A DNA stretch of 64,000 bases. Source: an uncultured SAR86 cluster bacterium. GTDB lineage: Bacteria > Pseudomonadota > Gammaproteobacteria > Magnimaribacterales > AG-339-G14. The stretch is taken from contig CACFIK010000001.1 of NCBI GenBank assembly GCA_902566305.1, forward strand, positions 29,205 through 93,204, in the 5' to 3' direction. The translations under genes were made by a program, and so were the position numbers. This document shows, piece after piece, positions 4,264 to 56,233 of the stretch. The first letter of the stretch is position 1; each line of letters begins with the position of its first letter. The notes beneath the pieces were generated by a model that saw nothing but the letters and a program-made list of their open reading frames with translations, searched no databases and was not told the DNA's origin.

Positions 4264-4337
4264 TTAAGACATTTTAAATTTTTCCCATTATAGTAGCATT
4301 TGAATAAATCGAAGATTCGGAGCATTTTATTTTCTTT

Positions 4338-20701: not shown

Positions 20702-21179
20702 TTTTCCTAATACTAAGAACATTTTCCACTTAATTGCTGTAGGTTTCGGTTCAGGACTAATTAGAATTGCTCCAGGAACTTGGGGGTCTACTCTCGCCTT
20801 AATTTTATTTATTGTTGCAGAGGCTTTTATCACTGATCTCTTACATCTATTTTTCTTCATCACTTCCTTGTTAATAATATTTTTGATTTCATGCATAGTT
20901 GCTTCTAGAGATGCAGATATAAAAGATGACTCAAGAATTGTTTCTGATGAAATGGGCGGAATGCTGCTCACCTTATTCATGGTGAGTATGATTTCAGATG
21001 GAATCTTTTTTTATCTTATAGGTTTTGCACTTTTTAGAGCTTTTGATATAGCCAAGCCCTGGCCTATTTCTTACGTAGACCAAAATTTAAAAAATGGATT
21101 TGGAGTTTTTTTAGATGATCTAATTGCAGGATTTTTGAGTTTTCTTGTGTTTTTTTGTTTTTATTTATTTCTTACTTAA
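20688..21179 (+). CDS. pgpA: phosphatidylglycerophosphatase A
   Basis: ATG at 20688, 14-nt overlap with thiL. The GFGSGLIRIAPGTWGS motif and a hydrophobic body match PgpA. The thiL-pgpA pairing is conserved. Confidence 0.88.
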   Translation: MVKNNFPNTKNIFHLIAVGFGSGLIRIAPGTWGSTLALILFIVAEAFITDLLHLFFFITSLLIIFLISCIVASRDADIKDDSRIVSDEMGGMLLTLFMVSMISDGIFFYLIGFALFRAFDIAKPWPISYVDQNLKNGFGVFLDDLIAGFLSFLVFFCFYLFLT

Positions 21180-23036
21180 TCTCTCTTTAATTTTCTTTAC
21201 TATTTTATCCTTGTCTAATTGATAGTCTTTTCTCTGTTCAGATATCCCTCCGATTGATGGGAAAAGGTCAGAAATTCCAAAATTAATTGTTTTAACTTTA
21301 ATATTTTCTTCCGAAATAAATTCATTGATGGCTGAACCGGCGCCCCCAGCAACAACATTATCTTCAAGAGTCACGATTAGCTCAGAATGGTTTGCACACT
21401 TGATTATGCAAGAAGTATCTAATGGTTTGACGAATCTCATATCAATCAAATTTGCTTCTAAATCTTTACTTATATCATCTGAGAGAGACAACATAGAACC
21501 GAAACTTAAGATAGAAATTTTATTTGTCTCGGAAAATTTAATTTCTTTAGATTTTCCAATCTCAATTTCTTCAAATTCAGTTGGTAGATCTGTTCCTAAT
21601 CCAAAGCCTTTGGGATATCTAACTGCAGCTGGGCCTTCAAATTTATAACCAGTTTCCAATAACCTCCAACATTCTTCTTCAGAGGAGGGCGTCATAATAA
21701 TCAAGTTTGGAATACACCTCATGAAAGATAAATCAAATATGCCAGAATGCGTTGCCCCATCCTCACCAACTAATCCAGCTCTATCTATGGCAATCAAGAG
21801 ATCAAGGTTTTGAATTGCTACATCATGAATTAATTGATCATATGCTCTTTGTAAGAAGGTAGAGTATATAGCTAGAACAGGCTTTTTCCCTTCGCAGGCA
21901 AGTCCGGCAGCAAAAGTCATAGCATGTTGTTCGGCGATTGCTACATCGTAGAAACGCGATGGGAATTTATCCGCAAATTCAACCATTCCTGAACCTTCTT
22001 TCATAGCAGGAGTGATTGCAATAAGGGAAGGATCAACATTTGCTTTTGAAGTTAGCCAAGAACCAAAAACATCTGAATATTTCATGCCAACATTTTTCTT
22101 CTTTGATGAATTTGGATTTTCCATTTTTGTGATTGCGTGGAATCCAATTGGATCGTCCTCTGCAGGTTTAAATCCTTTTCCTTTTTTAGTAATTAAATGA
22201 AGAAGCTTAGGACCAGAGGTATCGTTAAGATTTCTTAAAGTTCTTATTATTTCATTGACATTATGCCCATCCATGGGTCCAACATAGTTAAAGCCAAGTT
22301 CTTCGAATAGTGTTCCTGGTGCAACCATACCTTTGATATGCTCTTCAGCTTTACTAGCAAAGTTTTTTGCAGAAGGTATCAATCTTAGCGCCATTTTTCC
22401 TCCCTCTCTAATCTGCGTATACCATCGACTCGACCAAATTCTTGCCAAGTAATTAGATAACCCGCCAATATTTTTCGAAATTGACATATTGTTATCATTA
22501 AGGATTACCAACAAATCTTTATTTAGATTGCCAGAATGACTCAAGGCTTCAAACGCCATTCCAGCAGTTAATGCACCATCACCTATAACTGCTATTGCTT
22601 TTTCATTTGAACCGACTGTCATACCAAGAGCTGCGCTAATAGAAGTACTTGAATGGCCTACACCGAAAGTATCAAAGATGCTTTCTTCCCTAGAGGGGAA
22701 GGGATGCAAACCATCTTTTTGTCGCATGGATGACATCAAGCTTTTTCTCCCAGTAATAATTTTATGAGGATAGGTCTGATGACCAACATCCCAAACTATC
22801 TTATCTTTAGGAGAATCGAAGACATAATGAAGAGCAACGGTTAGCTCTACAACACCTAATCCAGCCCCGAAATGTCCACCTGTTTGTCCAACTGTGTATA
22901 GGAGAAATTCTCTAAGTTCATCACAGAAATCTCCTAATTGATTTTCTTTTAGCTGTTTTAAGTCTGAAGGTGAATTTACTCTGTCTAGTAAAGGTGTTTC
23001 AGGGCATTTATCTGGAATGGAATCAAATACTTTCAC
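21165..23036 (-). CDS. dxs: 1-deoxy-D-xylulose-5-phosphate synthase
   Basis: 623 aa. Motifs GHSSTSISAALGM and the TPP motif GDGALTAGMAFEALSHSG. Member of the xseB-ispA-dxs operon. Confidence 0.97.
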   Translation of the reverse strand: MKVFDSIPDKCPETPLLDRVNSPSDLKQLKENQLGDFCDELREFLLYTVGQTGGHFGAGLGVVELTVALHYVFDSPKDKIVWDVGHQTYPHKIITGRKSLMSSMRQKDGLHPFPSREESIFDTFGVGHSSTSISAALGMTVGSNEKAIAVIGDGALTAGMAFEALSHSGNLNKDLLVILNDNNMSISKNIGGLSNYLARIWSSRWYTQIREGGKMALRLIPSAKNFASKAEEHIKGMVAPGTLFEELGFNYVGPMDGHNVNEIIRTLRNLNDTSGPKLLHLITKKGKGFKPAEDDPIGFHAITKMENPNSSKKKNVGMKYSDVFGSWLTSKANVDPSLIAITPAMKEGSGMVEFADKFPSRFYDVAIAEQHAMTFAAGLACEGKKPVLAIYSTFLQRAYDQLIHDVAIQNLDLLIAIDRAGLVGEDGATHSGIFDLSFMRCIPNLIIMTPSSEEECWRLLETGYKFEGPAAVRYPKGFGLGTDLPTEFEEIEIGKSKEIKFSETNKISILSFGSMLSLSDDISKDLEANLIDMRFVKPLDTSCIIKCANHSELIVTLEDNVVAGGAGSAINEFISEENIKVKTINFGISDLFPSIGGISEQRKDYQLDKDKIVKKIKERLSKK

Positions 23037-23042
23037 TCTATT

Positions 23043-23936
23043 TTAATTTGTTCTCTCAACTATGAATTTTGTTAATTTAATTAATTTTTCAGTATTGTAT
23101 GGGAGAGATTTTAAACACTGAATAGCTTCATTGCATAAAGAGTCTGCTCTTGAATTAGATTCTTCTAAGCCAATTAATTTTGGGTATGTATTTTTTTTTA
23201 AATTTTCGTCGGAATTTGCTGGCTTACCAAGATCCTCTGTTGATGAGGTGCAATCTAAAATATCATCTTTTATCTGAAAGGCTAGACCAATACATTCTGC
23301 AAACTTAATGAATGCTTTCATATCATTTTCAGGTAAATCCTCCTTCAAAAGACAAGTGGCATGAACGCAGGCAGAAATTAATTTGCCTGTCTTTAGAATA
23401 TGAATCTTATCCAGTTCTTCTAGAGAGATATCAATATTTTCAGATTTAATATCTCTGTTTTGCCCTTCTACCATTCCAAAGGGACCACAAGCCTTTGAAA
23501 AAATACTGATAATTTTAATTTTGGTTTCAGCAGATAAATTAGGATCATCAATGTCAGTAATTATTTCCAATGCTAGAGGTTGGATAGCATCACCAGCAAG
23601 AATAGCTGATGCCTCACCAAATTTTATGTGACAAGAAGGTTTGCCTCTTCTCAAATCATCGTTGTCCATGGCAGGCAGATCATCATGGATCAAAGAGTAA
23701 CAATGAATTAGTTCTCCAGATGCTGCCATAGCATCAATAGTTTCATCTTTGAGATTTAAATTAAGGGAATCTGCAACAAGATATATTAGTTGCGGTCTTA
23801 TTCTTTTACCGCCATCAAGAACAGAATAATGTATTGCCTCAGTGATATTTGAAAAATCTTTTGCAGGCAAGGCTTTGTTTAAAGCTTTCTCAATTCTTTT
23901 TTGATTTTTTTCCAAAAAAGAGAAATCATCAATCAT
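23043..23936 (-). CDS. ispA: (2E,6E)-farnesyl diphosphate synthase
   Basis: First aspartate-rich motif LIHDDLPAMDNDDLRRG and second motif FQIKDDILD. ATG at 23936 overlaps the xseB stop by 8 nt. An alternative ATG lies at 23960. Confidence 0.93.
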   Translation of the reverse strand: MIDDFSFLEKNQKRIEKALNKALPAKDFSNITEAIHYSVLDGGKRIRPQLIYLVADSLNLNLKDETIDAMAASGELIHCYSLIHDDLPAMDNDDLRRGKPSCHIKFGEASAILAGDAIQPLALEIITDIDDPNLSAETKIKIISIFSKACGPFGMVEGQNRDIKSENIDISLEELDKIHILKTGKLISACVHATCLLKEDLPENDMKAFIKFAECIGLAFQIKDDILDCTSSTEDLGKPANSDENLKKNTYPKLIGLEESNSRADSLCNEAIQCLKSLPYNTEKLIKLTKFIVERTN

Positions 23937-24171
23937 TCGATATATCCTCAAAAGAAACATCTTCTCCTTCTTTAGAGGATAATTTTTTAATTTTTAACTC
24001 TGCATCTGAGAGCATCTTTTGACAAGCTTTAGTTAGAGATATGCCTTTCTCGTAAGCTTCTATTGAATCTTCTAAAGTTAAGTTTCCATCTTCTAAGCTC
24101 TCAATAATTTTTTCTATTTCATCGAGAGTAGATTCAAAATTGAGTGATTTTTTTTTATTGTTGCTGGACAT
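23929..24171 (-). CDS. xseB: exodeoxyribonuclease VII small subunit
   Basis: 80 aa. FESTLDEIEKIIESLEDGNLTLEDSIEAYEKGISL is typical of XseB. It sits upstream of ispA-dxs as in E. coli. Confidence 0.9.
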   Translation of the reverse strand: MSSNNKKKSLNFESTLDEIEKIIESLEDGNLTLEDSIEAYEKGISLTKACQKMLSDAELKIKKLSSKEGEDVSFEDISND

Positions 24172-27100
24172 TTACTTTTTTATTGAATATTTCAAATTTT
24201 GAAAAGATTTCCCTCAGTCTCGAAGGCAAAATTAGCCATGCTGGGGTCACAAAGAGAGTTAGTATAGTAGCAAAAGATAAGCCCCAAACTAAACCAAAGG
24301 CAAGGGGTTGCCAGTAAATAGCTACTCTTCCGCCAACACCAATTTCTCTTGTAATAAAATCTATACCAATACTGCTAGCGAGAGGCAATAATCCGACTAC
24401 AGTGGTGAAGGAGGTCAAAAAGACAGGCCTTAATCTCTGCGCGCAGGTTCTAATAAGGATATCTTTCTCTTTTAAATTTATGGAGTTTCTTTTTAGGACA
24501 TTATAGGTATCAACAAGCACGATATTGTTATTGACAACGATTCCAGCTAAAGCCACAACTGATAATCCAGTAAATAAAACACTGGTAAGTGACTGAGTGA
24601 CTAACAAGCCTAATTGTACGCCTGCAGTTGATAGAACTATGGCAAATACAATGACAAAAGCCTGATAAAAACTATTTAATTGAGTAACAAGAAGCATAGC
24701 CATAAGGAAAATTGAGATCATTCCAGCCGTAGCAAAAAAAGCAGCAGCTTCTTCGGTTTCCTCTTGCTCTCCACCAAAATTAAAACTAATTTGGTTAAAT
24801 TCGATATTTTCATCTATCCAAGTATTAATCTGAGAAATCACGTTCGAAGGAACTGCATTTTCCAAGTAATCTGCTGTTACTGTATAAGCTCTTTCCCCAT
24901 CAACTCTTCTTATTGAAGGAACATCGAGTTTTGGAACCACTTCAACAAAACTACTAAGAGGCATCAATCCTTCTCGAGTAGGAATATTTAATTCTCCAAG
25001 TTGATCTAGTCTTCTTTCAGACTCAGGATATCTAACTCTTATTTCGACTTCATCTTCAACGTCTTCCGGTCTGTATTCACCTAGCCTGAGGCCATTTGTG
25101 ACAAATTGAACAGCCGCTCCAATTTCAGAAGTTGAGACCCCAAACAACGAAGCTTTTTCTTTATCAATATCCATTGCCCATTCAATTTTTCTTACTGGAA
25201 TTGTTGTTTTAACGTTATCTACTCCATCAATTGAAGACTTCATGAACTCTTCAAGAGCTATAGTAGCTTCGTAAACAACTCTGGAATTTTGTCCTGATAT
25301 ATCAATTTCAATTGGAGCATCTATAGGTGGTCCTCCTTCTTCTCTTCTTACATTAAACTTAAGGCCCGGAAATTCTTTGCTTATCTCTCTGATCTGATCA
25401 AGAACTTGATAGCCATTAAGACCTCCAATAATTTCATCTTCTTCAAGAAATGCAAGCTCGACCATAAATCCACCGATACCGTCAGACGAGCCTCTACTTC
25501 TGGGATCTCCTGCAGAGTTTCCACCTGTAAAGGTTGATAACTTTATAATTTCTGGAATTTGAACAAGTTCATCTTCAATCTGCTCAATGAGTTCTAATTT
25601 TTCATTAGCATTTAAATTTCCTCTGGCTTCAACATTAACACTGACGAAGGTGGGTTCACCCTCAGCAAAAAAAGTTGAGCCGGCACCATGTCTTGCCTGC
25701 AGAAGGAAGATTGTATAAACAAGCAGGATAACAAAAAATAAAACTTGAATAGGCCTAGAAAGAATAAAGTTCAATGATCTAGCATAAGCACCGGTTATTC
25801 CAGGAAGCTCTGTGGGATCTCCGTTTTCTAACTTTGAGGTGTTTTGAATTGACTCTTGGCTTCTATTACCAATGCTGCCAAACAAAGATCCTATGGCCGG
25901 AGTAAATAGAAGAGCATAGATTAGCGAACCACCCAAAACTGCAAATACTGTGACAATAAGAGTTCTCAGGAAGCTTCCAGAAAGAGAGTCCCAAAAAAGG
26001 AGCGGAAAAAAGGCAGCTAAGGTCGTCAGATTGGATGCTATTACTGGCCAAAACATCCTTCTTGCAGCAAGTTTATAAGCTGTTGTTTTATCCAATCCCT
26101 CTGCCATCTTTCTATCGGCAAATTCAATTACAACCACAGCTCCATCAATCAGCATTCCCAATGAAATCAGTATTCCAAAACAGACTAAAAAGTTAAATGA
26201 TGTTCCATATGCATTTAGAATTATCATTCCAAAGAAGAAACACAGTGGGATTGCAGCGCCGACCATTAATGAAGATCTAACACCCATAGTAGCCAAGGCA
26301 ACTGCCATTACTAACACTAAGGCAGTAATTACGTTACCCATGAGTTCTTCCAACATAACCGTATTCCAGGCAGTTCTATCTTCTGTAATGACTATTTCAA
26401 GAGAAGGAGGATAAAGCTCTTTTTTCTGATCCAAAAGTTTATTAATGGCTTCGACTGCATCAAGTTCATTGGCATCCGTTCTTTTCACAACTTCTATGGC
26501 AACGGTATTCTTGCCATTGACCTTTGCATAAGTTTCTTGATCTTTATATGACCTTCGAATCTCAGCTACATCTTCTATTCTTATTACAGCGTTTCCTCTT
26601 TTAATAAGTGGAATTTTTCTTACATCACTGACATCTTCAAAAATCGAAGGAACTTTAACTGCAAATGTGCCGGTGCCTGTTGTTATTAAACCAGCAGGAA
26701 TTACCCTATTGTTTTGAGAGATTGCATTATAAAAATCTTGCGCTGTTATACCGAAACTCTCTAATCTAGTTCTATCAACTTCTACTACTAGAAGGTCTTC
26801 CGGAACCCCAGCCAAATTTGCTTCAAGTACGAGCGGGATACTTTCAACATCTGATCTTAAATCTTTAGCAATATAATTAAGTTCTCTTTTTGATAATTCG
26901 TTGGATACAAGATTTATTCGCATTATTGGGAATCTTGAAAAATTAAAGTTACTGACCATTGGCTCTTCAGCATCAGTAGGTAATTTAAAAGCTACTTCAT
27001 CTACAGCATCTCGGACATTTGTTTTTGCGATGTCTGGGTCAAAATCATTGGGGAACTCAACGATCACAGTGGAGAAATCCAATCTACTATAAGATTGAAC

Positions 27101-27340
27101 TCCTTTAACATCATCTACTGTTAAAAGTCTTTTCTCTAGTGGTCTCGATATGAGTCTTTCTGCATCTTCTGGTGAAACACCTTCGTAAAAGGTGCTGACC
27201 ATCACAAAGGGAACATCTATATCTGGTTCGGAGGCATTAGGAATTTGGCCATAAGAAAAAATGCCCCACGTTAAAACGAGGAACATCATTGTTAAGGTAG
27301 TTCTGTATCGATCTACAAAAAAATCAATTAATCCTTTCAT
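24155..27340 (-). CDS. RND efflux transporter permease (AcrB/HAE family)
   Basis: 1061 aa. The architecture shows 12 predicted TM segments and two large periplasmic loops. The N-terminus reads FFVDRYRTTLTMMFLVL...VSTFYEGVSPEDAE. Its stop overlaps the xseB start by 17 nt. Confidence 0.9.
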   Translation of the reverse strand: MKGLIDFFVDRYRTTLTMMFLVLTWGIFSYGQIPNASEPDIDVPFVMVSTFYEGVSPEDAERLISRPLEKRLLTVDDVKGVQSYSRLDFSTVIVEFPNDFDPDIAKTNVRDAVDEVAFKLPTDAEEPMVSNFNFSRFPIMRINLVSNELSKRELNYIAKDLRSDVESIPLVLEANLAGVPEDLLVVEVDRTRLESFGITAQDFYNAISQNNRVIPAGLITTGTGTFAVKVPSIFEDVSDVRKIPLIKRGNAVIRIEDVAEIRRSYKDQETYAKVNGKNTVAIEVVKRTDANELDAVEAINKLLDQKKELYPPSLEIVITEDRTAWNTVMLEELMGNVITALVLVMAVALATMGVRSSLMVGAAIPLCFFFGMIILNAYGTSFNFLVCFGILISLGMLIDGAVVVIEFADRKMAEGLDKTTAYKLAARRMFWPVIASNLTTLAAFFPLLFWDSLSGSFLRTLIVTVFAVLGGSLIYALLFTPAIGSLFGSIGNRSQESIQNTSKLENGDPTELPGITGAYARSLNFILSRPIQVLFFVILLVYTIFLLQARHGAGSTFFAEGEPTFVSVNVEARGNLNANEKLELIEQIEDELVQIPEIIKLSTFTGGNSAGDPRSRGSSDGIGGFMVELAFLEEDEIIGGLNGYQVLDQIREISKEFPGLKFNVRREEGGPPIDAPIEIDISGQNSRVVYEATIALEEFMKSSIDGVDNVKTTIPVRKIEWAMDIDKEKASLFGVSTSEIGAAVQFVTNGLRLGEYRPEDVEDEVEIRVRYPESERRLDQLGELNIPTREGLMPLSSFVEVVPKLDVPSIRRVDGERAYTVTADYLENAVPSNVISQINTWIDENIEFNQISFNFGGEQEETEEAAAFFATAGMISIFLMAMLLVTQLNSFYQAFVIVFAIVLSTAGVQLGLLVTQSLTSVLFTGLSVVALAGIVVNNNIVLVDTYNVLKRNSINLKEKDILIRTCAQRLRPVFLTSFTTVVGLLPLASSIGIDFITREIGVGGRVAIYWQPLAFGLVWGLSFATILTLFVTPAWLILPSRLREIFSKFEIFNKKVNVQQQ

Positions 27341-28394
27341 TAGAATCCGTAAATCTGCTATCTAAAGCTATACCTACTTTTTCTCCTTGGGATACGTAAT
27401 CTTGCCCGACTGTAATGATTGTTGAAATAGTATCAAGACCAATTATCCATGCTCCAAAGCTGGTGTCTTCAATTAGTTCAATTGATTTGAAGGCAACTAA
27501 GCCATCCTCATCAATGGTTCTAATACCTAAATCGCCATTAGCATCTAAACGCAAAACTGAAACTGGTACCAAATGAGCTAATCTTTCTGTTCCCTTAAGA
27601 GTTACTTCAGAAGTCATCCCATCTTTTATTTCAGACTCTGGGTTGGGAACTGATATTTCTACTCTAAAAGTTCTAGTGACTGGGTTGGCTGATGAAGAAA
27701 TGAATTTAACATCCCCTTCAAAAACTTTTCCATTGTTTAATTCAACCTTCGCTTTAGAATCTAGAGAAATTTCTGACATATCGTTTTCAGATATCTCTGC
27801 CGAAATAAGAATTGGATTAAGATCTAATACAGTCGCGCAAATACCTTGTCTTGGCAGAAAGTCTCCTACATCCAGATCAATCCTGTCCACTATTCCGTCA
27901 AAAGGTGCTTTTACAGATGCAAAGTCTAGATCTTGAAAAGCCCTTTCATATCTGGCTTTTGCAGCTTGCAGCTGGCTATTCGAATAAAGCCCCTCATCAA
28001 ATAATTTTTTTGCAGTTTCGTAATTCAAAGAAGCTTCCTTAGCTACTTCGTCTTTATCCCCGACAAAAATTTGGCATATTGGACTTCCTTTTTTGACAAA
28101 TTGTCCTTGGGCAACTGGAAGGCCAATGACTTGACCTGAGGTCTCAGCTCTTAATTGAACATTTTTATCTGCCTCCGCAGAACCTTTCAAAATAATATTT
28201 CTGGCAAAAGGCTGAGCAGATTGTTTCATCACTCTGACAGTGGTTTCTTCAATGACAACTTGCTTGGTAGGAATTTCTTTTTCCACAAAAAAACCTGAAA
28301 TCATCCAGATGGATGCAAAAAATAAAAAGATTCCTGCAGATTGTAAGTTTGAAATCGAAAGTATCGATTTTAAGATTGAGCTTAAAAATTTCAT
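27324..28394 (-). CDS. RND efflux periplasmic adaptor (membrane fusion protein)
   Basis: 356 aa. N-terminal TM/signal anchor, then coiled-coil, lipoyl and beta-barrel regions typical of AcrA/HlyD-family adaptors. 17-nt overlap with the RND permease gene. Confidence 0.85.
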   Translation of the reverse strand: MKFLSSILKSILSISNLQSAGIFLFFASIWMISGFFVEKEIPTKQVVIEETTVRVMKQSAQPFARNIILKGSAEADKNVQLRAETSGQVIGLPVAQGQFVKKGSPICQIFVGDKDEVAKEASLNYETAKKLFDEGLYSNSQLQAAKARYERAFQDLDFASVKAPFDGIVDRIDLDVGDFLPRQGICATVLDLNPILISAEISENDMSEISLDSKAKVELNNGKVFEGDVKFISSSANPVTRTFRVEISVPNPESEIKDGMTSEVTLKGTERLAHLVPVSVLRLDANGDLGIRTIDEDGLVAFKSIELIEDTSFGAWIIGLDTISTIITVGQDYVSQGEKVGIALDSRFTDSNERIN

Positions 28395-28481
28395 GTATTT
28401 AATATGGAGACGAAAGGGATTATATCAACTTAGCTATGTATTACATGCTTTTTTATCTTATGACAGTAAGCATGTCAATAA

Positions 28482-29069
28482 TTAACCAGAATGTTTTTCT
28501 TTTAATTTTTCAAGAAGGTGAATTTGTTCTTCTTGAGATAGATTAGTTTTGCTTTCTTTTATTGCATTTAATTCTGGAAGATAAAAGTTGCTGGCATCGC
28601 ATAGGTAGTCCTTTATTGAATCGGACATTAGAGATTGAAACTTTTCAAAACCTTCTCTTTCTTCGGAGCGCCTGAGATCAGCCCAACCAAAGTTTTTAGC
28701 CGTTTCATATATCAAAGGATGTGACCATTTGAAATTTTCAGGCTCATCTGACCCTAAACAGGCCTCTGCAAAAGCCGACTCAATAGACTGAATTCCCTCT
28801 TTTTTTAGGTAATGACTTTTAATTTCTTCTAATGTTTGACTCAGCGATGGAAGATATTTTGATTTTGAAGTCAATTCATCAATTGCTTCGAATATCAAAT
28901 CCAAAGAGAAGATTTCTAATTTTTTGAGCCACAATTGTTTTGCTAAATTTAAACTAACTTCATCCTTAAAAGCTTTATGAAATTGATTGTGATAAGTAAT
29001 TTCCAATTGAGCAAAAATTAGATTAACCAACTCTATGTGATTATTTGGAATTTTTATTTTTTCGCCCAT
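28482..29069 (-). CDS. phage lambda replication protein P-like protein (putative DnaB helicase loader/operator)
   Basis: 195 aa. It aligns by eye with lambda P over most of its length: LVNLIFAQLEITY vs lambda IINGVFSQLLATF; KYLPSLSQT vs PFLPSPGQF; FKWSHPLIYE vs YPWKSNAHYW. It overlaps the upstream DnaT-repeat gene by 16 nt. The lambda P sequence is recalled from memory. Confidence 0.6.
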   Translation of the reverse strand: MGEKIKIPNNHIELVNLIFAQLEITYHNQFHKAFKDEVSLNLAKQLWLKKLEIFSLDLIFEAIDELTSKSKYLPSLSQTLEEIKSHYLKKEGIQSIESAFAEACLGSDEPENFKWSHPLIYETAKNFGWADLRRSEEREGFEKFQSLMSDSIKDYLCDASNFYLPELNAIKESKTNLSQEEQIHLLEKLKEKHSG

Positions 29070-29965
29070 TCGGTATTAGAAAGCCTTTCCAATATATTAG
29101 AACTTTTTTTTGAATCCTTTTCCCAAGAATTCTTTATAAAGTTTATAAATTTATTGTTCCAGTTTGGCGAAATTTCTCCAGCATCAATCCAATAAAGTCT
29201 AAATTCAGGTATTTTTGATTCTATGAAATCGACTGGAATATTTGTTACCTCCAAAACCTTTATGCAATCCTCACTGGGTAGCCAATCTTTTGACATAGGT
29301 TGATCTTCTTTATCACTATCAAGCTTAAAGTTTTTTCTAGCCCACTGTTTTTTTGCATGATTTAAAAAAGTGGAATTCCAAGAGTTGGATTTAATCCTTT
29401 TTTCTTTCCAAAATAAAATAAACTCCGGCAGCAGGCTTTCAATGAAAGAATCACTTATTTCTAAACCTTTAAGAATTGACCTGGCATCCTCTGAGGGCTG
29501 CCAGTTCTTATCTATGAGAACTTTCTTCGATTCTTGATATTCAATTTTTTCCTTTTCTCTCCAATTTTTCAAAGCGTATTGAAGAAATTTTGCCTCTTTT
29601 AAATGCGGCTTTAAATCTTTTCCTTTCCAAAATAAATTAAAACTTGGAAGCTGATCTCCTAAGAAATCCTGTTCGATTCCTAAATTGCATGCCTGTTTAA
29701 CTAAATCTTCACTAGGATAAAAATTCATGGACTCATCTGAATTGGAAGCATTGTCCTTGGCAGAAATATTGTTGAAAAGGCCTAAATTATTAAGTTTTTG
29801 ATAAGAATTTTCTATTTGCGAAACATCCAAGAACCTAAATTCATCCTTCAGAATACTCAAGGAAAAGTTTTCTCGATTGTTTTGGAAAAAGTCTAGGATG
29901 ATTGCTTCAGTAATTCCAAGAGATTCTGCAATTTCTTTTGAGAAAGTGTATTTTTTCCCTGACAT
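29054..29965 (-). CDS. protein with a putative N-terminal HTH and three tandem DnaT-type (primosomal protein DnaT C-terminal, ssDNA-binding) modules
   Basis: 303 aa. The N-terminus FSKEIAESLGITEAIILDFF looks like an HTH. A module W/Y-x-P-S-E-D...L...(G)I...F(I/L)...LP.F.L(F/Y)W...W...F...W recurs three times with a 73-aa period. It matches E. coli DnaT DWQPDADFIRLAALWGV...FIAYWQAEGK...WQQKL. Confidence 0.6.
   Translation of the reverse strand: MSGKKYTFSKEIAESLGITEAIILDFFQNNRENFSLSILKDEFRFLDVSQIENSYQKLNNLGLFNNISAKDNASNSDESMNFYPSEDLVKQACNLGIEQDFLGDQLPSFNLFWKGKDLKPHLKEAKFLQYALKNWREKEKIEYQESKKVLIDKNWQPSEDARSILKGLEISDSFIESLLPEFILFWKEKRIKSNSWNSTFLNHAKKQWARKNFKLDSDKEDQPMSKDWLPSEDCIKVLEVTNIPVDFIESKIPEFRLYWIDAGEISPNWNNKFINFIKNSWEKDSKKSSNILERLSNTEWAKK
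29123..29722 (-). repeat. three tandem in-frame copies of a DnaT-like module with a 219-nt period (29561-29722, 29342-29503, 29123-29284)
   Basis: Protein-level repeats: FYPSEDLVKQACNLGIEQDFLGDQLPSFNLFWKG...; WQPSEDARSILKGLEISDSFIESLLPEFILFWKE...; WLPSEDCIKVLEVTNIPVDFIESKIPEFRLYWID.... The DNA copies have diverged. Confidence 0.8.
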
Positions 29966-31036
29966 TTATGCTGAAACCTTCATATTCTGTCTTCTATTTT
30001 TGACAGCACTTGAAAGCAAATTCAGCATAATTTCTGTATCTTCCCAGCCAACGCAAGCGTCGGTGATACTTTGTCCGTATTCGAGTTTATTTTTATTATC
30101 GGAGCTTTGGTTTCCCTCAATTAAATTGCTTTCAATCATGACTCCAACGATATTTCTAGATCCAGATGATATCTGGTTACAAAGGTCTTGATTTACAATC
30201 AACTGTTTTTTGAACTGTTTGCTGCTATTCCCATGACTCATATCAACCATGACAGAATCTATTAATCCATTTTCTTTAAGTATTTTTGATGTTTCTTTTA
30301 TGTCTTTGTCTTTGTAATTAGGCTCGCTTCCTCCTCTAAGGATCACATGACAATCTTGATTTCCCGCTGAGTTGAAGATAGCTGACTTACCCTCTTTAGT
30401 GATGGATAAGAAGATGTGTGAATGACTAGCAGCCTTTAGTGCATCAACGGCTACCTTTACTGACCCATTAGTGCTGTTTTTAAATCCAACAGGACAAGAT
30501 AACCCAGAAGCTAATTCTCTATGAATCTGACTCTCAGTGGTTCTAGCTCCAATAGCTCCCCAAGATATTAAATCTGAGATATATTGCGGAGTGATAATAT
30601 CGAGGTATTCTGTACCTGCAGGCAATCCTAATTCATTTATTTCCAAAAGAAGTTTTCTGGCAGTTTTTAACCCCTTATTTATGTTGAAGCTGTTATCAAT
30701 ATCTGGATCGTTTATCAAACCTTTCCATCCAATTGTGGTTCTAGGTTTTTCAAAATAAACCCTCATCACTATTTTGAGTTCTTTCGATAAATCATCAGCA
30801 AGCGGCTTTAATTTTTTTGCATATTCTATGGCAGCCTTTGGGTCATGAATGGAACAAGGACCTACTACAACTAATAAACGGTCATCTTCTTGCTTAAGAA
30901 TTGAGGATAATTCATTTCTTGATTCGTAAACCAGCTTCGATGCTTTTGAAGACAGGGGTAACTTGTCAATTAGCTTGATTGGAGGTGTGACCTCCAAAAG
31001 TCCTTTAATCCTAGTATTGTCTGTTAAATATTGCAT
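29966..31036 (-). CDS. aroG: 3-deoxy-7-phosphoheptulonate (DAHP) synthase, class I
   Basis: 356 aa. Motifs GPCSIHD and KPRTTIGWKGLINDP, nearly identical to the E. coli AroF/G/H signature. Isozyme specificity is unknown. Confidence 0.92.
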   Translation of the reverse strand: MQYLTDNTRIKGLLEVTPPIKLIDKLPLSSKASKLVYESRNELSSILKQEDDRLLVVVGPCSIHDPKAAIEYAKKLKPLADDLSKELKIVMRVYFEKPRTTIGWKGLINDPDIDNSFNINKGLKTARKLLLEINELGLPAGTEYLDIITPQYISDLISWGAIGARTTESQIHRELASGLSCPVGFKNSTNGSVKVAVDALKAASHSHIFLSITKEGKSAIFNSAGNQDCHVILRGGSEPNYKDKDIKETSKILKENGLIDSVMVDMSHGNSSKQFKKQLIVNQDLCNQISSGSRNIVGVMIESNLIEGNQSSDNKNKLEYGQSITDACVGWEDTEIMLNLLSSAVKNRRQNMKVSA

Positions 31037-31102
31037 AATTCTTTAAGTGAAAGCATTTTATATATAATCTCTTCAATTTAAAGGTTTTAATCTAAATATA
31101 CA

Positions 31103-32704
31103 GTGAAAATTTCTCTAGTACAGGAAAATCCCGTTGTTGGCGATATAGAAGGTAATACTTCTATAGCAAAAGATTACATTTTGAAATTTGAATCATCTGG
31201 TTCAGATCTCATTGTATTTAGTGAGCTATTTATTACAGGTTATCCTCCAGAAGATTTATTATTGAGAGACGATTTTCTTATTTCTGCACAAAAAAGTGTT
31301 GAAAATTTGTCATCATCAATAAAAAAATCAAAAGTTTTAATTGGACTGCCAACAAAGAAAGATGGCAAAAGATACAATTCTGCTGCTTTAATCGATAAGT
31401 CTGGAATCATTCAAATCTATGATAAACATGTTCTTCCAAACTATATCGAATTTGATGAAAAGAGATATTTTTCTAATGGCAGCTCCAAGAACTTCTTTCA
31501 ATTAAATGATCTCAAAGTAGGACTTTCAATTTGCGAAGATATTTGGGATGAAGGATTTATAGATTTGCAAAAAGAAAATAATCTTGACCTTCTCATAAAT
31601 CTGAGTGCTTCGCCATTCACCACCAGCAAGAAAGAAGAGAGAGGCAATGTTTTTGCCAAGATCTCTGAAAAGTTAAACATTCCTTTGATTTACGTAAATC
31701 AAACAGGAGGACAAGATGAACTGGTTTTTGATGGCACTTCCTCAGTAATCAATAAACAAGGTGATGTGACTATTGAACTTAAAAGCTTTGCGACTGATTC
31801 TATTCAATTTAATCATGAAGATTTAAATAATAGTTCAATCAAAGAAAAAACATCAAACAGATTGAAAGATCTTTATGATTCATTAGTGCTAGCTACAAAA
31901 GACTACGTAGAAAAAAATAACTTCAAAGGAGTGCTAATTGGTTCATCCGGCGGTATTGACTCTGCTTTGACAGCAACGATTGCAACAGATGCTCTTGGTT
32001 CAGAAAAAGTTAGAACGATAATGATGCCTTTTAAATATACTGCAGACATTAGTATCAATGATGCTGCTCTTTTGGCAAAGAATTTAGAAATCAATCATCA
32101 AGAAATTCCAATAGAGAAGGTTTATGACGCTCACATGAGCAAGCTTTCTGAAATTTTTAACAATAAAAAAATTGATAAAACCGAAGAAAATTTGCAGTCA
32201 AGAATCAGAGGAGTGACTCTGATGGCAATTTCAAATAAAGACGGTTTATTAGTTCTCACAACGGGGAATAAAAGTGAAACTGCAGTTGGCTACTCGACGT
32301 TATACGGCGATACTGCGGGAGGATTTGCAGTTTTAAAAGATGTGTCAAAGACATTGGTTTATGAACTATCAAAATATAGAAATGGATTAAATGAAGTGAT
32401 TCCAGAAAGAATCATTACAAGACCCCCAAGCGCTGAACTAGCTCCAGATCAAAAAGATTCTGATTCCCTGCCAGATTATGAAATATTGGATCCAATAATA
32501 GAGCTCTACGTAGAAAAGGATTTTTCTGTAAAAGAGATAATTCAAGAAGGTTTTGATGAGAAGACTGTAGAAAAAATAATCGGACTTATTGATTTCAATG
32601 AGTACAAAAGAAGGCAGGCTCCATTGGGAGTGAAAATATCCGATAGAAATTTTGACAAGGGTAGAAGATATCCTATTACCAATTTATGGAAACCCAATAT
32701 ATAG
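31103..32704 (+). CDS. nadE: glutamine-dependent NAD+ synthetase
   Basis: 533 aa with a GTG start. N-terminal CN-hydrolase domain (catalytic Cys in LSICEDIW) plus a C-terminal PP-loop synthetase domain (GSSGGIDSALTA). Confidence 0.92.
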   Translation: MKISLVQENPVVGDIEGNTSIAKDYILKFESSGSDLIVFSELFITGYPPEDLLLRDDFLISAQKSVENLSSSIKKSKVLIGLPTKKDGKRYNSAALIDKSGIIQIYDKHVLPNYIEFDEKRYFSNGSSKNFFQLNDLKVGLSICEDIWDEGFIDLQKENNLDLLINLSASPFTTSKKEERGNVFAKISEKLNIPLIYVNQTGGQDELVFDGTSSVINKQGDVTIELKSFATDSIQFNHEDLNNSSIKEKTSNRLKDLYDSLVLATKDYVEKNNFKGVLIGSSGGIDSALTATIATDALGSEKVRTIMMPFKYTADISINDAALLAKNLEINHQEIPIEKVYDAHMSKLSEIFNNKKIDKTEENLQSRIRGVTLMAISNKDGLLVLTTGNKSETAVGYSTLYGDTAGGFAVLKDVSKTLVYELSKYRNGLNEVIPERIITRPPSAELAPDQKDSDSLPDYEILDPIIELYVEKDFSVKEIIQEGFDEKTVEKIIGLIDFNEYKRRQAPLGVKISDRNFDKGRRYPITNLWKPNI

Positions 32705-32750
32705 GGTTATAGTAAGAAAAAATCACTACATTTTGTGCTTTTGAAGGCAA

Positions 32751-33596
32751 TTGAGCTATAATTCGCTCAAAACAGCTGTGGATACAATAAAAGACATCAA
32801 TAAAGCTGAACAACAAGAATTGCCTCTAAAATTGCAAGGCGAGAATATATCTGACCTTCCCGAAGATTTATACATCCCACCTAATTCTCTAAGAATATTT
32901 TTAGATTCATTTGAAGGCCCGTTAGACCTCCTTTTGTATTTTATTAAGAAGCAGAACCTTGATATTGCCAACATTGATGTTTCTTTAATTACTGATCAAT
33001 ATATTTCATACATAAACCTCATGGAAGAACTTCAGTTTGATTTGGCTGGTGAATACCTAGTCATGTCTGCTTATCTTGCAGAAATAAAATCTAGGATTTT
33101 GTTACCTTCACTATCTGAAGATGATGAGGTAGAAGACGACCCGAGATCAGAATTAATTAGAAGACTTCAAGAATACGAGAGATATAAAAAAGCATCTGAA
33201 AGCTTAAATGATATTCCAATGGTAAACAGAGATTTTTATCTCGCTAGTGCAGCAAAACCTGAATTTGAAGCATCAAAAGAAAAACCAAAAATTACAGGAG
33301 AAGACTTAGTGCTTATTTTTAATGAGCTTAAAGAAAGAATAAGTCTTAATAAAAGTCATGTTATTGATTTTGAAGAACTTTCTACAAGAGAAAGGATGAC
33401 CGAAATTCTTGAATTACTCCAACAAAGTGACTTAATAGCTTTCAATGATTTGATAAAGAAGTCAGAAGGAAAGATGGGCGTTGCAGTTGTCTTGTTAGCA
33501 ATCATGGAGTTGCTTAAAGATTCACTAATAAAGGGGATTCAAAACGAACCTTTCGGAAAAATTCATCTTTCAAAAAAAATTGCAGGCGTCCACTAA
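32751..33596 (+). CDS. scpA: segregation and condensation protein A
   Basis: 281 aa with a TTG start. Has the FEGPLDLLLYFIKKQNLDI signature of ScpA. Confidence 0.88.
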   Translation: MSYNSLKTAVDTIKDINKAEQQELPLKLQGENISDLPEDLYIPPNSLRIFLDSFEGPLDLLLYFIKKQNLDIANIDVSLITDQYISYINLMEELQFDLAGEYLVMSAYLAEIKSRILLPSLSEDDEVEDDPRSELIRRLQEYERYKKASESLNDIPMVNRDFYLASAAKPEFEASKEKPKITGEDLVLIFNELKERISLNKSHVIDFEELSTRERMTEILELLQQSDLIAFNDLIKKSEGKMGVAVVLLAIMELLKDSLIKGIQNEPFGKIHLSKKIAGVH

Positions 33597-34196
33597 ATGA
33601 ATACGATCACACTTTCAAAAATTATTGAGGCGATACTTCTATCGTCTGGCAGACCTTTAAGCGAAAAAGAGATCACTAACCTATTCGACGAAGAAGAAAA
33701 ACCATCTCATACAGAATTTAAAGATGCTTTAGATTTGATTGAGCAAAATTCTCAAAATAATTCTTTTACTTTATCTAGGGTTGCAAGTGGATTTAGACTT
33801 CAGGTTGATCAAGCTTATGCCCCTTATATTGCTAAAATTTGGCAAGAGAAGAATCAAAGATATTCCAGAGCGTTAATGGAGACAATAACTTTGATAGCCT
33901 ACAAGCAGCCCATAACAAGAAGCGAGATAGAGGAAGTTAGAGGAGTTTCAGTAAGTAGTAATTTAATTAAGAATTTATTTGAAAAGGGATGGATTAAAGT
34001 TGTCGGTATTAGAGATGTTCCTGGAAAACCAAGTTTGCTAGGTACTACAAAAGAGTTTCTTGATGACTTGGGGCTCAAGAAACTATCGGATTTGCCTTCT
34101 TTACCAGAAATAAATATTTCTACTAAATCTACCATGCCATTACCTTTGGAGGATCCAGACCAAAATTCCATTGAGAGAAATGAGATAATCCAGTGA
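33597..34196 (+). CDS. scpB: segregation and condensation protein B
   Basis: 199 aa. IIEAILLSSGRPLS plus tandem winged-helix regions. Starts directly after scpA. Confidence 0.88.
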   Translation: MNTITLSKIIEAILLSSGRPLSEKEITNLFDEEEKPSHTEFKDALDLIEQNSQNNSFTLSRVASGFRLQVDQAYAPYIAKIWQEKNQRYSRALMETITLIAYKQPITRSEIEEVRGVSVSSNLIKNLFEKGWIKVVGIRDVPGKPSLLGTTKEFLDDLGLKKLSDLPSLPEINISTKSTMPLPLEDPDQNSIERNEIIQ

Positions 34197-34918
34197 AAGA
34201 AAGAATCCAAAAGGTTCTTTCCGATTCAGGCATCGCATCTCGACGGCAAATAGAAAAGTTCATTCAAGAAAAAAGAATCTTTGTTGGCGACAGACTAGCC
34301 AAGCTTGGAGAGAAAATTTCAAGAGATGATCAAATTTTCCTGGATGGAAAAAAAATTACTCTAAATGTTAATAATAAGTTAAGAGTATTAGCTTTAAACA
34401 AACCTGAAGGGTTTGAATGCACTAGATCAGAAAAAAGCTCTAAGAAAAAAATATTTGATTTGTTGCCGCCTGAAAAAAACTTCAGATGGATATCAGTAGG
34501 TAGATTGGACTTAAACACCTCAGGCCTTCTTTTGCTTACAAATAATGGGCATGTTGCCAATCAACTAATGCATCCCTCATCAATGCTTGATAGAGAATAC
34601 ATTGCTCGTATAAGGGGAGAAGTTGAACCAGCTGATTTAGAAAAATTAAAAAAAGGCCTTCAAATTGATGGAAATAGAATGAAATTCAATGATTTAGTTG
34701 AAGGCAGGATAACCAAATCCCACTCTTGGTTTGCTCTTGTTATGCAAGAGGGAAAAAATAGAGAAGTCAGAAAGCTATGGAATGCATTAGGCTACGAAGT
34801 AAGTCGCCTTAAAAGAGTAAGGTACGCAAATATTTTTTTACCCTCCACGTTAAAGCAGGGCTCCTATAAGGAACTGAGCCAAAAAGAAATTGATAACTTA
34901 ATCAAGAATCTCTCTTAG
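34193..34918 (+). CDS. rluB: 23S rRNA pseudouridine synthase, RsuA/RluB family
   Basis: 241 aa. N-terminal S4 domain (RIQKVLSDSGIASRR) and catalytic motif VGRLDLNTSGLLLLTN. Conserved scpB-rluB adjacency. Confidence 0.87.
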   Translation: MKERIQKVLSDSGIASRRQIEKFIQEKRIFVGDRLAKLGEKISRDDQIFLDGKKITLNVNNKLRVLALNKPEGFECTRSEKSSKKKIFDLLPPEKNFRWISVGRLDLNTSGLLLLTNNGHVANQLMHPSSMLDREYIARIRGEVEPADLEKLKKGLQIDGNRMKFNDLVEGRITKSHSWFALVMQEGKNREVRKLWNALGYEVSRLKRVRYANIFLPSTLKQGSYKELSQKEIDNLIKNLS

Positions 34919-35557
34919 GGATTTAATTTTAACAACATCGTTTAAATCCTCATCTTTAATGGAGTTATTATGATAGCCGTATTCTGCAAATATAAATGAG
35001 GTTTTCGCACGTTTTGAGGCCTCGAAATCTTTGAAATGGTCTCCAAAAAAAAGAGTATTTTCAGGAGAACAATTTAACTTCTTCATGGCTAAATTTATAC
35101 CGCTTGGATCAGGTTTTCTTCTGTTCTCAGCATCTTCTGGAGAGATAACTATATCTGCTACTTCATCCCATTTATAAAAATTTGAGATTTTATCAGTGAG
35201 GAATTTAGGTTTATTTGTAACTATCCCCCACTTTTTATTATTATCTTTGATGAATTTTATAAGTTCTTCAAAGCCTCCAAATGTTTTGGAGTCAGTACAT
35301 ATTTTTTCGTACTCCTCAATAAGCTCTTTTCTTAGAATTTCGAAATTGGCATCATTATCTAAAATTGAGAATCCAAGTGAAATCAAGGCTCCAGCACCCT
35401 CAGAAACAATTTGTCTTACAGATGAAAATTCTTTTTCAATTAACTCCTTTTGCTGAAGCAAAAAATTAAGAGACAGATGAAATTCTTTAGCAGTATCCAG
35501 AATGGTGCCATCTAAATCAAAGAGGTACAGGTCTATATCACTGTGGTTTATGAGCAT
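34898..35557 (-). CDS. HAD-IA family phosphatase (phosphoglycolate phosphatase / MupP-like)
   Basis: 219 aa. Motif I FDLDGTILDT, motif II VTNK, motif IV FGDHFKD. It lies downstream of ubiG as in Pseudomonas. Confidence 0.8.
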   Translation of the reverse strand: MLINHSDIDLYLFDLDGTILDTAKEFHLSLNFLLQQKELIEKEFSSVRQIVSEGAGALISLGFSILDNDANFEILRKELIEEYEKICTDSKTFGGFEELIKFIKDNNKKWGIVTNKPKFLTDKISNFYKWDEVADIVISPEDAENRRKPDPSGINLAMKKLNCSPENTLFFGDHFKDFEASKRAKTSFIFAEYGYHNNSIKDEDLNDVVKIKSLREILD

Positions 35558-36230
35558 GAACTAAATAGTTAACTGTAACATCATCGCCTAACCAATAGTT
35601 GCCTGAAAGTGGGTTGTAGCTCATTCCAATGATTTCTTTAACTTCTAACCCCGACCTTGTCATAAAACCATGAAGTTCTGATGGTTTTATGAACTTATTA
35701 AAATCATGAGTACCTTTGGGTAATAAATTAAGAATGTATTCAGCACCAATAATTGCAAAAAGAAAGGATTTTGGATTTCTATTGATAGTTGAAAAAAACA
35801 CTTCGCCGCCCGGTTTACATAAATCTGAGCAAGTCTTAACGAGCAATTCAGGATCGGGAACATGTTCTATCGCTTCAAGGCAAGAAACGATATCAAAAGC
35901 TTTCTTTTCAACAAGCAAGCTTTCAGCTTCCCCAAGGATATAGCTTATATCTTTGTTGCTTTTTGAAGCATGAAGTTTCGCTGTTTCTATTGCGACTTCT
36001 GATATATCAACTCCTGTGACTTGCGCTCCAAAATCGTACAAAGCTTCTGTTAATAATCCGCCACCACAAGCAACATCAAGAACCTCTAAATTATTTACGT
36101 TTTTTTTGTCATTAATATAATTTGAACGTAGAGGATTAATTTTATGTAGAGGTGCAAATTTTCCAGAAGGATCCCACCACTCTTCTGCTATTTTATTAAA
36201 CTTATCTTTTTCTGCTTGATCGATATTCAT
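35538..36230 (-). CDS. ubiG: bifunctional 3-demethylubiquinol / 2-polyprenyl-6-hydroxyphenol O-methyltransferase
   Basis: 230 aa. Motifs FNKIAEEWWDPSGKFAPLHKINPLR and SAM motif VLDVACGGGLL. Confidence 0.92.
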   Translation of the reverse strand: MNIDQAEKDKFNKIAEEWWDPSGKFAPLHKINPLRSNYINDKKNVNNLEVLDVACGGGLLTEALYDFGAQVTGVDISEVAIETAKLHASKSNKDISYILGEAESLLVEKKAFDIVSCLEAIEHVPDPELLVKTCSDLCKPGGEVFFSTINRNPKSFLFAIIGAEYILNLLPKGTHDFNKFIKPSELHGFMTRSGLEVKEIIGMSYNPLSGNYWLGDDVTVNYLVHAHKPQ

Positions 36231-36349
36231 ATTTCTGACAATCTGAGTTCAGTATATTGAATTACATTGTAAAAAAAAGTTAAAGCTTCATTTATATTAA
36301 GCTTAATACTTTGTTTAAAATTAATTCTTATTTTTATTTAAAACTTGAA

Positions 36350-37468: not shown

Positions 37469-37472
37469 TTTA

Positions 37473-56133: not shown

Positions 56134-56207
56134 GGCTGAGTGGCAGAGTGGTTATGCAGCGGACTGCAAATCCGTGTACGCCGGTTCGATTCCGACCTCA
56201 GCCTCCA
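56134..56207 (+). tRNA. cysT: tRNA-Cys (anticodon GCA)
   Basis: 74 nt. Acceptor stem GGCTGAG/CTCAGCC, anticodon loop CTGCAAA, T-arm GGTTCGATTCC, encoded CCA end. Layout closely matches E. coli tRNA-Cys. Confidence 0.95.
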
Positions 56208-56233
56208 ATTAATTAGAGAGATTAGTAAGCAAG

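Follow-up and report, generated by a model that had tools for sequence, protein, structure and literature searches.

A SAR86 ortholog of the dopC-dopE gene pair, a putative module for loading the DnaB helicase

Background

Two overlapping genes lie on the minus strand of a stretch of 64,000 nucleotides from contig CACFIK010000001.1 of an uncultured SAR86 cluster bacterium; this whole 64-kb stretch is referred to here as the window. In the list of open reading frames (ORFs) they occupy 29054-29965 and 28482-29069 and encode proteins of 303 and 195 amino acids (aa), respectively. aroG flanks the pair on one side, and the genes of a resistance-nodulation-division (RND) pump and its membrane fusion protein (MFP) adaptor, ispA and dxs flank it on the other. 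An earlier note on this DNA, written from the sequence alone, had reported the two genes, their 16-nt overlap at 29054-29069 and these neighbors; its coordinates are exact, and family matches of the flanking ORFs agree with its assignments of aroG, the RND pump, ispA and dxs. We identify the pair as the SAR86 ortholog of dopC-dopE (DopCE), a putative DnaB-loading module, and give this reading a probability of roughly 0.7.

dopE has been described as a domesticated lambda-P-like gene with a companion, dopC, directly upstream (Brezellec et al. 2017, Genome Biol Evol, PMC5509034). Among 13 complete genomes taken from Cellvibrionales and Oceanospirillales, dopE was the sole gene that tracked the loss of both dciA and dnaC (PMC5509034). 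The published DopC has a helix-turn-helix (HTH) N-terminus and a DnaT C-terminal-type domain that replaces the C-terminal domain of lambda O, and the similarity between O and DopC was said to be restricted to the N-terminus (PMC5509034). We found no experimental work on DopC or DopE in the literature, where papers to 2026 cite DopE only by way of the 2017 paper; the remark of the earlier note that the pair was a purely bioinformatic proposal is borne out. Likewise, no paper linking SAR86 to DciA or to helicase loaders was found. DopCE is the standing candidate for helicase loading in bacteria without DnaC/DnaI or DciA. SAR86, which is placed in Gammaproteobacteria incertae sedis in the NCBI taxonomy, ranks with the most abundant surface-ocean heterotrophs, and its genome is streamlined.

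The finding presented here largely rediscovers a published prediction and extends the pair to SAR86. The assignment to dopC/dopE that the earlier note had proposed fits the 2017 description. Its presentation of the DnaT content and the triple-module architecture as new was overstated, because the pair and the DnaT domain of DopC were published in 2017 and three modules are the norm in DopC. What is new is the SAR86 host, the compact forms of both proteins, the explicit count of three modules throughout the family, a more closely related phage protein for DopC and a shared C-terminal tail.

DopE, a member of the lambda P loader family

The 195-aa protein matches the Pfam family PF06992 (Phage_lambda_P) with 25.4 bits (E 1.4e-5; gathering score 26) and PHROG 109, 'P-like helicase loader', with an E value of 2.2e-13. 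A profile of SAR86 DopE sequences only compared with lambda P at E 0.054 and did not reach any lambda P chain in the PDB. A broader profile, which combined SAR86 sequences with those of Cellvibrionales, Pseudohongiella and phage PAJU2, matches lambda P (PDB 8v9t_V) at E 2.1e-5, with residues 10-191 of DopE aligned to residues 35-225 of P. The AlphaFold2 (AF2) model of DopE has a mean predicted local distance difference test score (pLDDT) of 84.9, and its sole confident Foldseek matches are the lambda P chains of 9oa1 (probability 1.00; template modeling score, TM, 0.52-0.55). Because the broader profile and the structural search both arrive at lambda P, the predicted membership of DopE in the lambda P loader family is solid. 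The earlier note had aligned the protein by eye with lambda P along most of its length and had suggested a profile search against the family; the family assignment stands, through PHROG 109, the broader profile and Foldseek, whereas the alignment by eye is weak and the Pfam score lies just under the gathering score. A phmmer search of both window proteins against PDB sequences returned nothing relevant, and NCBIfam has no model for DopC or DopE.

Cryo-electron microscopy in 2025 divided lambda P into an N-terminal lasso (domain I, residues 1-29), a domain II (~30-119) that self-assembles into the loader spiral, and a domain III (~120-192) that binds the subunit interfaces of the DnaB C-terminal domain (CTD) (PMC12661323). 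The DopE model has five helices in residues 11-90, four in 96-157 and a terminal helix at 179-193; the linker before the last is of low confidence (pLDDT 60-72 over residues 161-180, and below 50 at 169-173). Invariant HNQFHKA and AKQLWL motifs lie in the predicted equivalent of domain II. By alignment and model, DopE appears to keep equivalents of domains II, III and IV and to be without domain I, because the alignment begins at lambda P residue 35, which is residue 10 of DopE. An N-terminal lasso was not found in DopE, in which only ~9 residues precede domain II. The C-terminal helix on its flexible tether would, in silico, be the equivalent of the C-terminal lasso in lambda P.

Lambda P (PF06992; PDB 8v9t, 9oa1, 9oa2) and DopE have in common the predicted fold of domains II and III and a gene position directly after an initiator-type gene. 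They differ in sequence, with an identity of 13-14% in the structural alignment, and in that DopE is without the domain I lasso, is chromosomally encoded and has a partner that is not of lambda O type. The SAR86 protein is also compact within its own family: its 195 aa compare with ~215-250 aa elsewhere, and the N-terminal extension is missing. Most DopE ORFs from outside SAR86, together with the P-like proteins encoded without an upstream dopC (see below), carry ~20-70 extra N-terminal residues, with start codons taken as predicted.

Residues ~10-90 of DopE also resemble the N-domain of the SPP1 helicase loader/inhibitor G39P (PDB 1no1; profile E 0.0088; Foldseek probability 0.97, TM 0.77 over 69 columns). 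A viral contig (L085, described below) encodes a short P-like protein that matches the Pfam family Inhibitor_G39P at E 0.0014. These resemblances hint at a common ancestral domain of lambda P and G39P.

Domain architecture of DopC

In the 303-aa protein, Pfam detects PF17948, the DnaT DNA-binding domain, three times (E 3.5e-50; best stretch 222-287), in agreement with the earlier note, which had recognized three such copies. A hidden Markov model (HMM) constructed from these three copies gives the module boundaries listed in Table 1. Module 1 is the most degenerate copy, with F replacing the first W. No iterons were found in dopC or dopE, in which the sole direct repeat is the module duplication itself (49 nt at a 219-nt spacing, modules 1-2). 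The DopC profile matches the DnaT CTD structures 4ou7, 4ou6, 9zbu and 9zbt at E values of ~1e-3 and covers only DnaT residues ~76-144, that is, the CTD. Neither the N-terminal oligomerization domain of DnaT nor its PriB-docking linker was found in DopC.

In the AF2 model of DopC (pLDDT 77.5; predicted TM score, pTM, 0.38), an N-domain at residues 10-60 is followed by a disordered linker and by three bundles of three helices each. Helices of the N-domain are predicted at 10-16, 18-29, 36-42 and 48-60. Its motif, S..IA.SlG(I/L).EAI, contains S9, A13 and G17, which are invariant in both DopC alignments. Pfam found no HTH family in this domain, and Foldseek gave weak winged-HTH matches (probability <=0.33). 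The likely HTH N-terminus of the earlier note therefore keeps indirect backing, from homology to a phage initiator (99.3%; see below) and from the four-helix model, and has no direct family match. The full-length model had no significant Foldseek match because it is a flexible multi-domain chain.

In E. coli, the DnaT CTD forms a filament that wraps lagging-strand single-stranded DNA (ssDNA), with two nucleotides per CTD-CTD interface (PMC13377028). According to the 2026 preprimosome structure, this filamentation takes the DNA over from PriB, and DnaT is suspected to be the recruiter of DnaB-DnaC (PMC13377028). DopC resembles DnaT in its three-helix ssDNA-binding module of CTD type and in that its gene precedes a helicase-loader gene, as dnaT and dnaC are in one operon (PMC13377028). 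It differs in carrying three CTD-type modules per chain, whereas DnaT has one per chain and builds its filament by oligomerization. It also differs in being without the DnaT N-terminal domain and in having a P-type loader downstream instead of the AAA+ DnaC of dnaT-dnaC.

Table 1. Features of the dopC-dopE locus (positions in the window)
Feature	Position	Strand	Basis or remark
aroG	29966..31036	-	NCBIfam AroG, E 2e-170; ends at 29966, 0-nt spacer before dopC
dopC	29054..29965	-	303-aa companion; HTH-like N-domain followed by three modules of DnaT-CTD type and a conserved C-terminal tail
DopC N-terminal domain (aa 1-~65), HTH-like	29771..29965	-	Four-helix AF2 model, alignment motif
DnaT-type module 1 (aa 79-148)	29522..29731	-	Module HMM, E 1.2e-34; AF2 three-helix bundle 86-146
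DnaT-type module 2 (aa 151-219)	29309..29515	-	Module HMM; AF2 bundle 159-214
DnaT-type module 3 (aa 224-291)	29093..29296	-	Module HMM; AF2 bundle 232-296
DopC tail '...NILERLSNTEWAKK'	29054..29092	-	Core D/N-x-S/E-W-A; holds the dopE start codon; candidate docking peptide
dopC/dopE overlap, 16 nt	29054..29069	-	ORF coordinates
dopE	28482..29069	-	195-aa lambda-P-family helicase loader (predicted)
DopE domain-II equivalent (aa ~10-90)	28800..29042	-	Aligns to lambda P 35-~119; AF2 helices 11-90, pLDDT ~90
DopE domain-III equivalent (aa ~91-157)	28599..28799	-	Profile alignment and AF2; invariant W115-S-H117-P motif
DopE C-terminal linker and helix 179-193	28485..28598	-	AF2; DopE 170-191 aligned to lambda P 203-225

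Conservation of the pair in SAR86 and related bacteria

The comparison set comprised 80 related genomic loci with flanks of up to 10 kb, of which L001-L043 are from SAR86. Close homologs of both window proteins carry the annotation SAR86 cluster bacterium, and L001, from a SAR86 single-cell genome, is 99% identical and has the same gene order. Of the 80 loci, 69 have a dopC ortholog directly upstream of dopE, and the remaining 11 hold a solo P-like gene. The SAR86 order scpB-scpA-nadE / aroG-dopC-dopE-MFP-RND-ispA is kept in every locus with enough flanking DNA (three SAR86 loci end early at contig ends), and aroG and dopC are adjacent in every SAR86 locus that reaches upstream of dopC. The dopC and dopE ORFs overlap or abut in all SAR86 loci. 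Between SAR86 clades, identity falls to 40-47% for DopE and 31-40% for DopC, compared with 69-74% for aroG. Relative to close relatives, the ratio of nonsynonymous to synonymous substitution rates (dN/dS) is 0.10-0.12 for dopC and 0.05-0.13 for dopE; the comparison genes aroG and nadE have ratios of 0.02-0.06 and 0.07-0.11. The SAR86 pair is a resident chromosomal locus under purifying selection. Synteny, a dN/dS of ~0.1 and housekeeping neighbors are all in keeping with the domesticated, non-prophage module that the earlier note had proposed, and the synteny check that it had recommended showed a constant order.

Three DnaT modules upstream of a P-like gene occur in SAR86, Pseudohongiella, Litorivivens, Spongiibacteraceae and metagenome-assembled genomes (MAGs) of Cellvibrionales/Pseudomonadales. 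Pfam itself reports three DnaT domains in the DopC of Litorivivens, Pseudohongiella and one Pseudomonadales MAG. Module 1 is degenerate in a few SAR86 lineages, and two modules were detected in a few divergent SAR86 proteins and in truncated copies. An exhaustive search of 1.84 billion representative proteins with a single-module profile gave 673 matches at E <= 1e-3, 90 of them at E <= 1e-30. Most of the top-ranking ones are 350-420 aa long with three matched stretches, which is the DopC class, and many shorter ones have two. In Cellvibrionales, Pseudohongiella and every SAR86 clade examined, DopC as a rule has the triple-DnaT arrangement. Four matched DnaT stretches were seen in five proteins of 372-542 aa (P0336, P0337, P0345, P0354, P0368) and are either true modules or split matches.

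The SAR86 pair agrees with DopCE as described in 2017 for Cellvibrionales and dciA-less Oceanospirillales in having dopC directly upstream of a lambda-P-like dopE, in the succession of an N-terminal domain, here putatively of HTH type, and DnaT C-terminal-type domains in DopC, and in a chromosomal housekeeping context with no iterons or DnaA boxes. With the present-day DopC of Cellvibrionales and Pseudohongiella it has in common the triple-DnaT arrangement followed by the C-terminal tail. It differs in its host, which was not covered in 2017, in its sequence, which is just 26-40% identical to other DopCE, and in the size of DopC, which has 303 aa compared with ~360-420 aa elsewhere, the N-domain and linker being reduced.

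A neighbor-joining (NJ) tree of DopE was constructed with 100 bootstraps and with lambda P, Pseudomonas phage PAJU2 P and Halomonas phage QHHSV-1 P as outgroups. Chromosomal DopE was monophyletic relative to these three phage P proteins in 98 of 100 replicates, which gives moderate support to a grouping of SAR86 DopE with that of Cellvibrionales/Oceanospirillales rather than with phage P, and SAR86 was monophyletic in 100. The non-SAR86 DopE group was recovered in only 17% of replicates, and the branching of SAR86 among the carriers is not fixed. The monophyly of DopE and the unusual DopC architecture common to the carriers favor one domestication inherited by SAR86 and by Cellvibrionales/Pseudohongiella, a question that a distance tree with three phage outgroups does not settle.

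Solo P-like genes without an upstream dopC were seen at L044, L045, L047, L051, L053, L057, L060, L062, L070, L072 and L077. Their ORFs are ~215-250 aa or longer with an N-terminal extension (starts as predicted), and their products group in one clade close to the DopE of Pseudohongiella (bootstrap 80%). In four of six such loci that were read, a gene for an ABC-F (EttA-like) ATPase lies beside the P-like gene. Two of the solo-gene contigs are labeled as Enterobacteriaceae/Klebsiella MAGs; their context equals that of the other solo loci, which suggests that they are mis-binned.

Phage relatives of DopC and DopE

Neither window protein had a tblastn match among 50,697 phage records. Phage relatives were reached with the less AT-biased Litorivivens orthologs as queries, and P-like loaders were found in Pseudomonas phages. 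In profile-profile comparison with hhalign, DopC matches gp50 of Xanthomonas phage HXX_Dennis (L082:2551-3417) with a probability of 99.3% and an E value of 9e-21, in an alignment that spans the DopC N-domain and module 1. DopC also matches PHROG 1408 at E 6.5e-12. The 'replication initiation protein' of Xanthomonas/Stenotrophomonas phages has a DopC-type N-domain and one DnaT module. HXX_Dennis gp50 thus resembles DopC in the order of an N-terminal domain and a DnaT module; it differs in having a single module, in ending without the '...DxSWA' tail and in being followed by rusA instead of a gene for a P-like loader.

Lambda O is like DopC in its position upstream of P and in its C-terminal tail. 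It differs in that DopC is without PF04492 (Phage_rep_O) by Pfam, compares with lambda O at an hhalign E value of 0.83 and has no iterons in its gene. The O-like protein of PAJU2 does match PF04492 (E 3.9e-19). Given the negative hhalign comparison, we do not endorse the derivation of the body of DopC from lambda O. With a match of 99.3% to HXX_Dennis gp50 set against E 0.83 to lambda O, sequence comparison points to a PHROG 1408-type phage initiator as the better ancestor model for DopC.

The C-terminal tail of DopC

DopC ends in a conserved tail with the consensus (F/L)xRL(T/S)DRSWA, of which the window version is ILERLSNTEWAKK. W300 is invariant in both DopC alignments, and A301 is invariant in one and nearly so in the other. 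Of 70 DopC ORFs, 69 have the core motif no more than 15 residues from the C-terminus, compared with 3 of the 3506 other ORFs of the same loci. The start codon of dopE (ATG at 29067-29069, minus strand) falls within the GAA-TGG codons for E-W of this tail, so that conservation of the tail and translational coupling of the two genes are physically linked. Such coupling is probable given the 16-nt overlap.

Similar ends occur on phage proteins. Lambda O (L083) ends in '...LTNTDWIYGVDL', resembling the '...LSNTEWAKK' of the window protein, and the PAJU2 O-like protein (L081) ends in ...NDTSWAVGLEQDLF, which is similar to the end of a Spongiibacteraceae DopC (...TDRSWAAGLVEDL). On viral contig L085, an O-like protein with an HTH_36 domain (4274-4972) ends in ...ITDRSWAE; a short P-like gene follows directly, and YqaJ and ERF recombination genes adjoin. 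When DopC was compared with this O-like protein by hhalign, the tail alone was aligned (E 2e-4). The motif is also found on proteins of L086-L090. Among these, Mu-like viral contigs (L087-L090, IMG/VR) encode proteins of 169-195 aa that consist of two DnaT modules and a DxSWA tail, and the genes (e.g. L087:5019-5552) lie directly upstream of GemA and Mor homologs. In replicative transposition, these phage-borne proteins may substitute for DnaT.

Proposed function and alternative explanations

As orthologs of DopC and DopE, the two SAR86 proteins would act together in loading DnaB. DopE would bind DnaB and open its ring as lambda P does. DopC would be the adaptor, and its small HTH-like N-domain would derive from one class of phage replication initiators. 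Homology of its modules to the DnaT CTD suggests that it binds ssDNA, and since three such modules are found in one chain, they may provide a built-in seed, its units covalently linked, for a filament on exposed ssDNA like that of the DnaT CTD. Since P is bound by the C-terminal part of lambda O, we propose, as a lead rather than a result, that the DopC tail docks DopE or DopE-DnaB. Together, DopC and DopE would deliver DnaB to ssDNA at an origin opened by DnaA, at abandoned forks, or at both, in a genome from which other loaders would be absent. DopCE would in this way replace DnaC or DciA and might also replace DnaT.

A more far-reaching form of this proposal is tentative, and we regard it as possible rather than probable. 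It would have DopC as a covalent DnaT filament joined to an O-type docking tail, and DopCE as the only route of DnaB loading in SAR86, at oriC and at abandoned forks alike, merging the roles of DnaC/DciA, DnaT and perhaps PriB. Under this proposal, the DxSWA tail may act as a docking peptide of general use, either to P-type loaders or to DnaB.

Several points weigh against the assignment of a DnaB-loading function. No experiment with a DopC or DopE protein, from whichever host, is described in the searched literature. DopE scores slightly below the PF06992 cut-off in Pfam and aligns structurally with lambda P at low identity. The low pTM of the DopC model means that the mutual placement of the three modules is not predicted, and its full-length fold search was empty; the comparison of DopC with lambda O was negative. 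The likeness of the tail to that of lambda O itself rests on 5-7 residues, and the Mu-like contigs bear the tail with no adjacent P-like gene, so that its partner might not be the loader and could be DnaB or a host factor. Finally, the absence of dciA, dnaC and dnaI is established for the 64-kb window only, in which none of the scanned ORFs belongs to the DUF721 (DciA) or IstB/DnaC families.

This last point leaves room for a division of labor in which DopCE merely reloads DnaB at stalled or collapsed forks and D-loops, and another loader, DciA or one yet unknown, serves oriC. In E. coli the DnaT CTD is a restart-specific former of ssDNA filaments, and DopC has three copies of it. The Mu-like viral contigs likewise encode two-module DnaT proteins with the same tail, and Mu replication relies on host restart proteins. 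The authors of the 2017 study also suggested a link to fork reactivation; their finding that dopE alone tracked the loss of dciA and dnaC in 13 complete genomes, on the other hand, argues that DopE serves oriC too (PMC5509034). Nothing in the sequence separates loading at origins from loading at restart sites. We consider a role confined to restart unlikely.

Two further explanations would deny the pair a loading role or make it secondary, and the conservation of the locus speaks against both. The pair might have been left behind by a defective prophage or other mobile element, as an O/P-type replication module with no cellular role. Both proteins have phage relatives (the P-like loaders of Pseudomonas phages and the initiators with a DopC-type N-domain and a DnaT module), and a viral contig bears an O-like/P-like pair. 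A remnant would hardly hold a constant position between aroG and the RND genes in SAR86 loci with enough flanks despite a DopE identity of ~42%, nor evolve at a dN/dS of ~0.1, similar to that of nadE. None of the 50 flanking ORFs scanned encodes an integrase, repressor or structural protein, as the earlier note had stated for the vicinity, or a recombination protein; no tRNA lies within 27 kb, the GC content equals that of the flanks, and the tblastn search of phage records with the window proteins was empty. A remnant is scarcely credible on this evidence. The pair might instead be kept mainly for immunity, with the domesticated P-type protein holding DnaB against hijack by phages. Domesticating a viral loader may hamper certain phages, as the 2017 paper speculates (PMC5509034), and lambda P does out-compete DnaC for DnaB (PMC5509034, PMC12661323). 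PADLOC, however, gave no significant match in the window, its sole match being to a restriction-enzyme model (E 0.016), and strict vertical inheritance as a single copy within a housekeeping operon, under purifying selection at housekeeping level, is unlike what is seen in defense islands. Phage exclusion as the main function is very unlikely, and would at best be a side benefit of a loader role.

A DnaB-loading role for DopCE would matter beyond this one locus. Being fixed and under purifying selection in SAR86, the pair makes DopCE a candidate of relevance beyond two orders of cultivable gammaproteobacteria. The compact SAR86 forms outline a minimal core, which in DopE would comprise domains II to IV of lambda P but no N-terminal lasso, and in DopC a short N-domain, three DnaT modules and the tail. 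Taken together with the 2025 structures of lambda P-DnaB and the 2026 structures of the DnaT filament, these compact features yield testable biochemical predictions.

Gene layout and surroundings of the pair

aroG is probably the first gene of an aroG-dopC-dopE transcript. No terminator-like sites were found in 27800-31400, and hence none between aroG, dopC and dopE. One promoter-like site lies upstream of aroG (31082-31055), with promoter-like sites overall at chance level.

All of the 50 flanking ORFs that were scanned are housekeeping genes except two without a Pfam family. They include dxs, ispA, the RND pump and its adaptor, aroG, nadE, scpA, scpB, rluB, pntAB and gyrA; serC, pheA, hisC, tyrA, aroA, cmk, rpsA, pyrF, uvrC and pgsA; and the rib operon, nusB, nrdR, glyA, purA, hflKC and miaA. 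The GC content is ~32-39% over the profiled region of 20-38 kb, and the pair matches its flanks with no step. DnaA-box-like sites number 19 in the window compared with 18.4 expected, and none lies inside dopCE. The sign of the GC skew flips at ~31 kb (20000-38000 profiled), which is the divergent aroG/nadE junction. A replication origin at this flip was considered and rejected; the skew tracks the coding strand over 20-38 kb, the aroG-nadE spacer is just 66 bp, and DnaA boxes are at chance level.

The only tRNA genes of the window lie at 56.1 and 57.1 kb, 27 kb from the pair. In 56134-58042, tRNA-Cys and tRNA-Leu flank a short, apparently truncated ORF of 286 aa that is UDP-glucose/GDP-mannose dehydrogenase-like, and a 280-aa ORF without a Pfam family and ABC transporter genes follow; this may be a small variable region. 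At 53960-54523 on the plus strand, between uvrC and pgsA, a 187-aa SIS-domain protein (GmhA/DiaA-like) is encoded; DiaA-type proteins help DnaA in E. coli.

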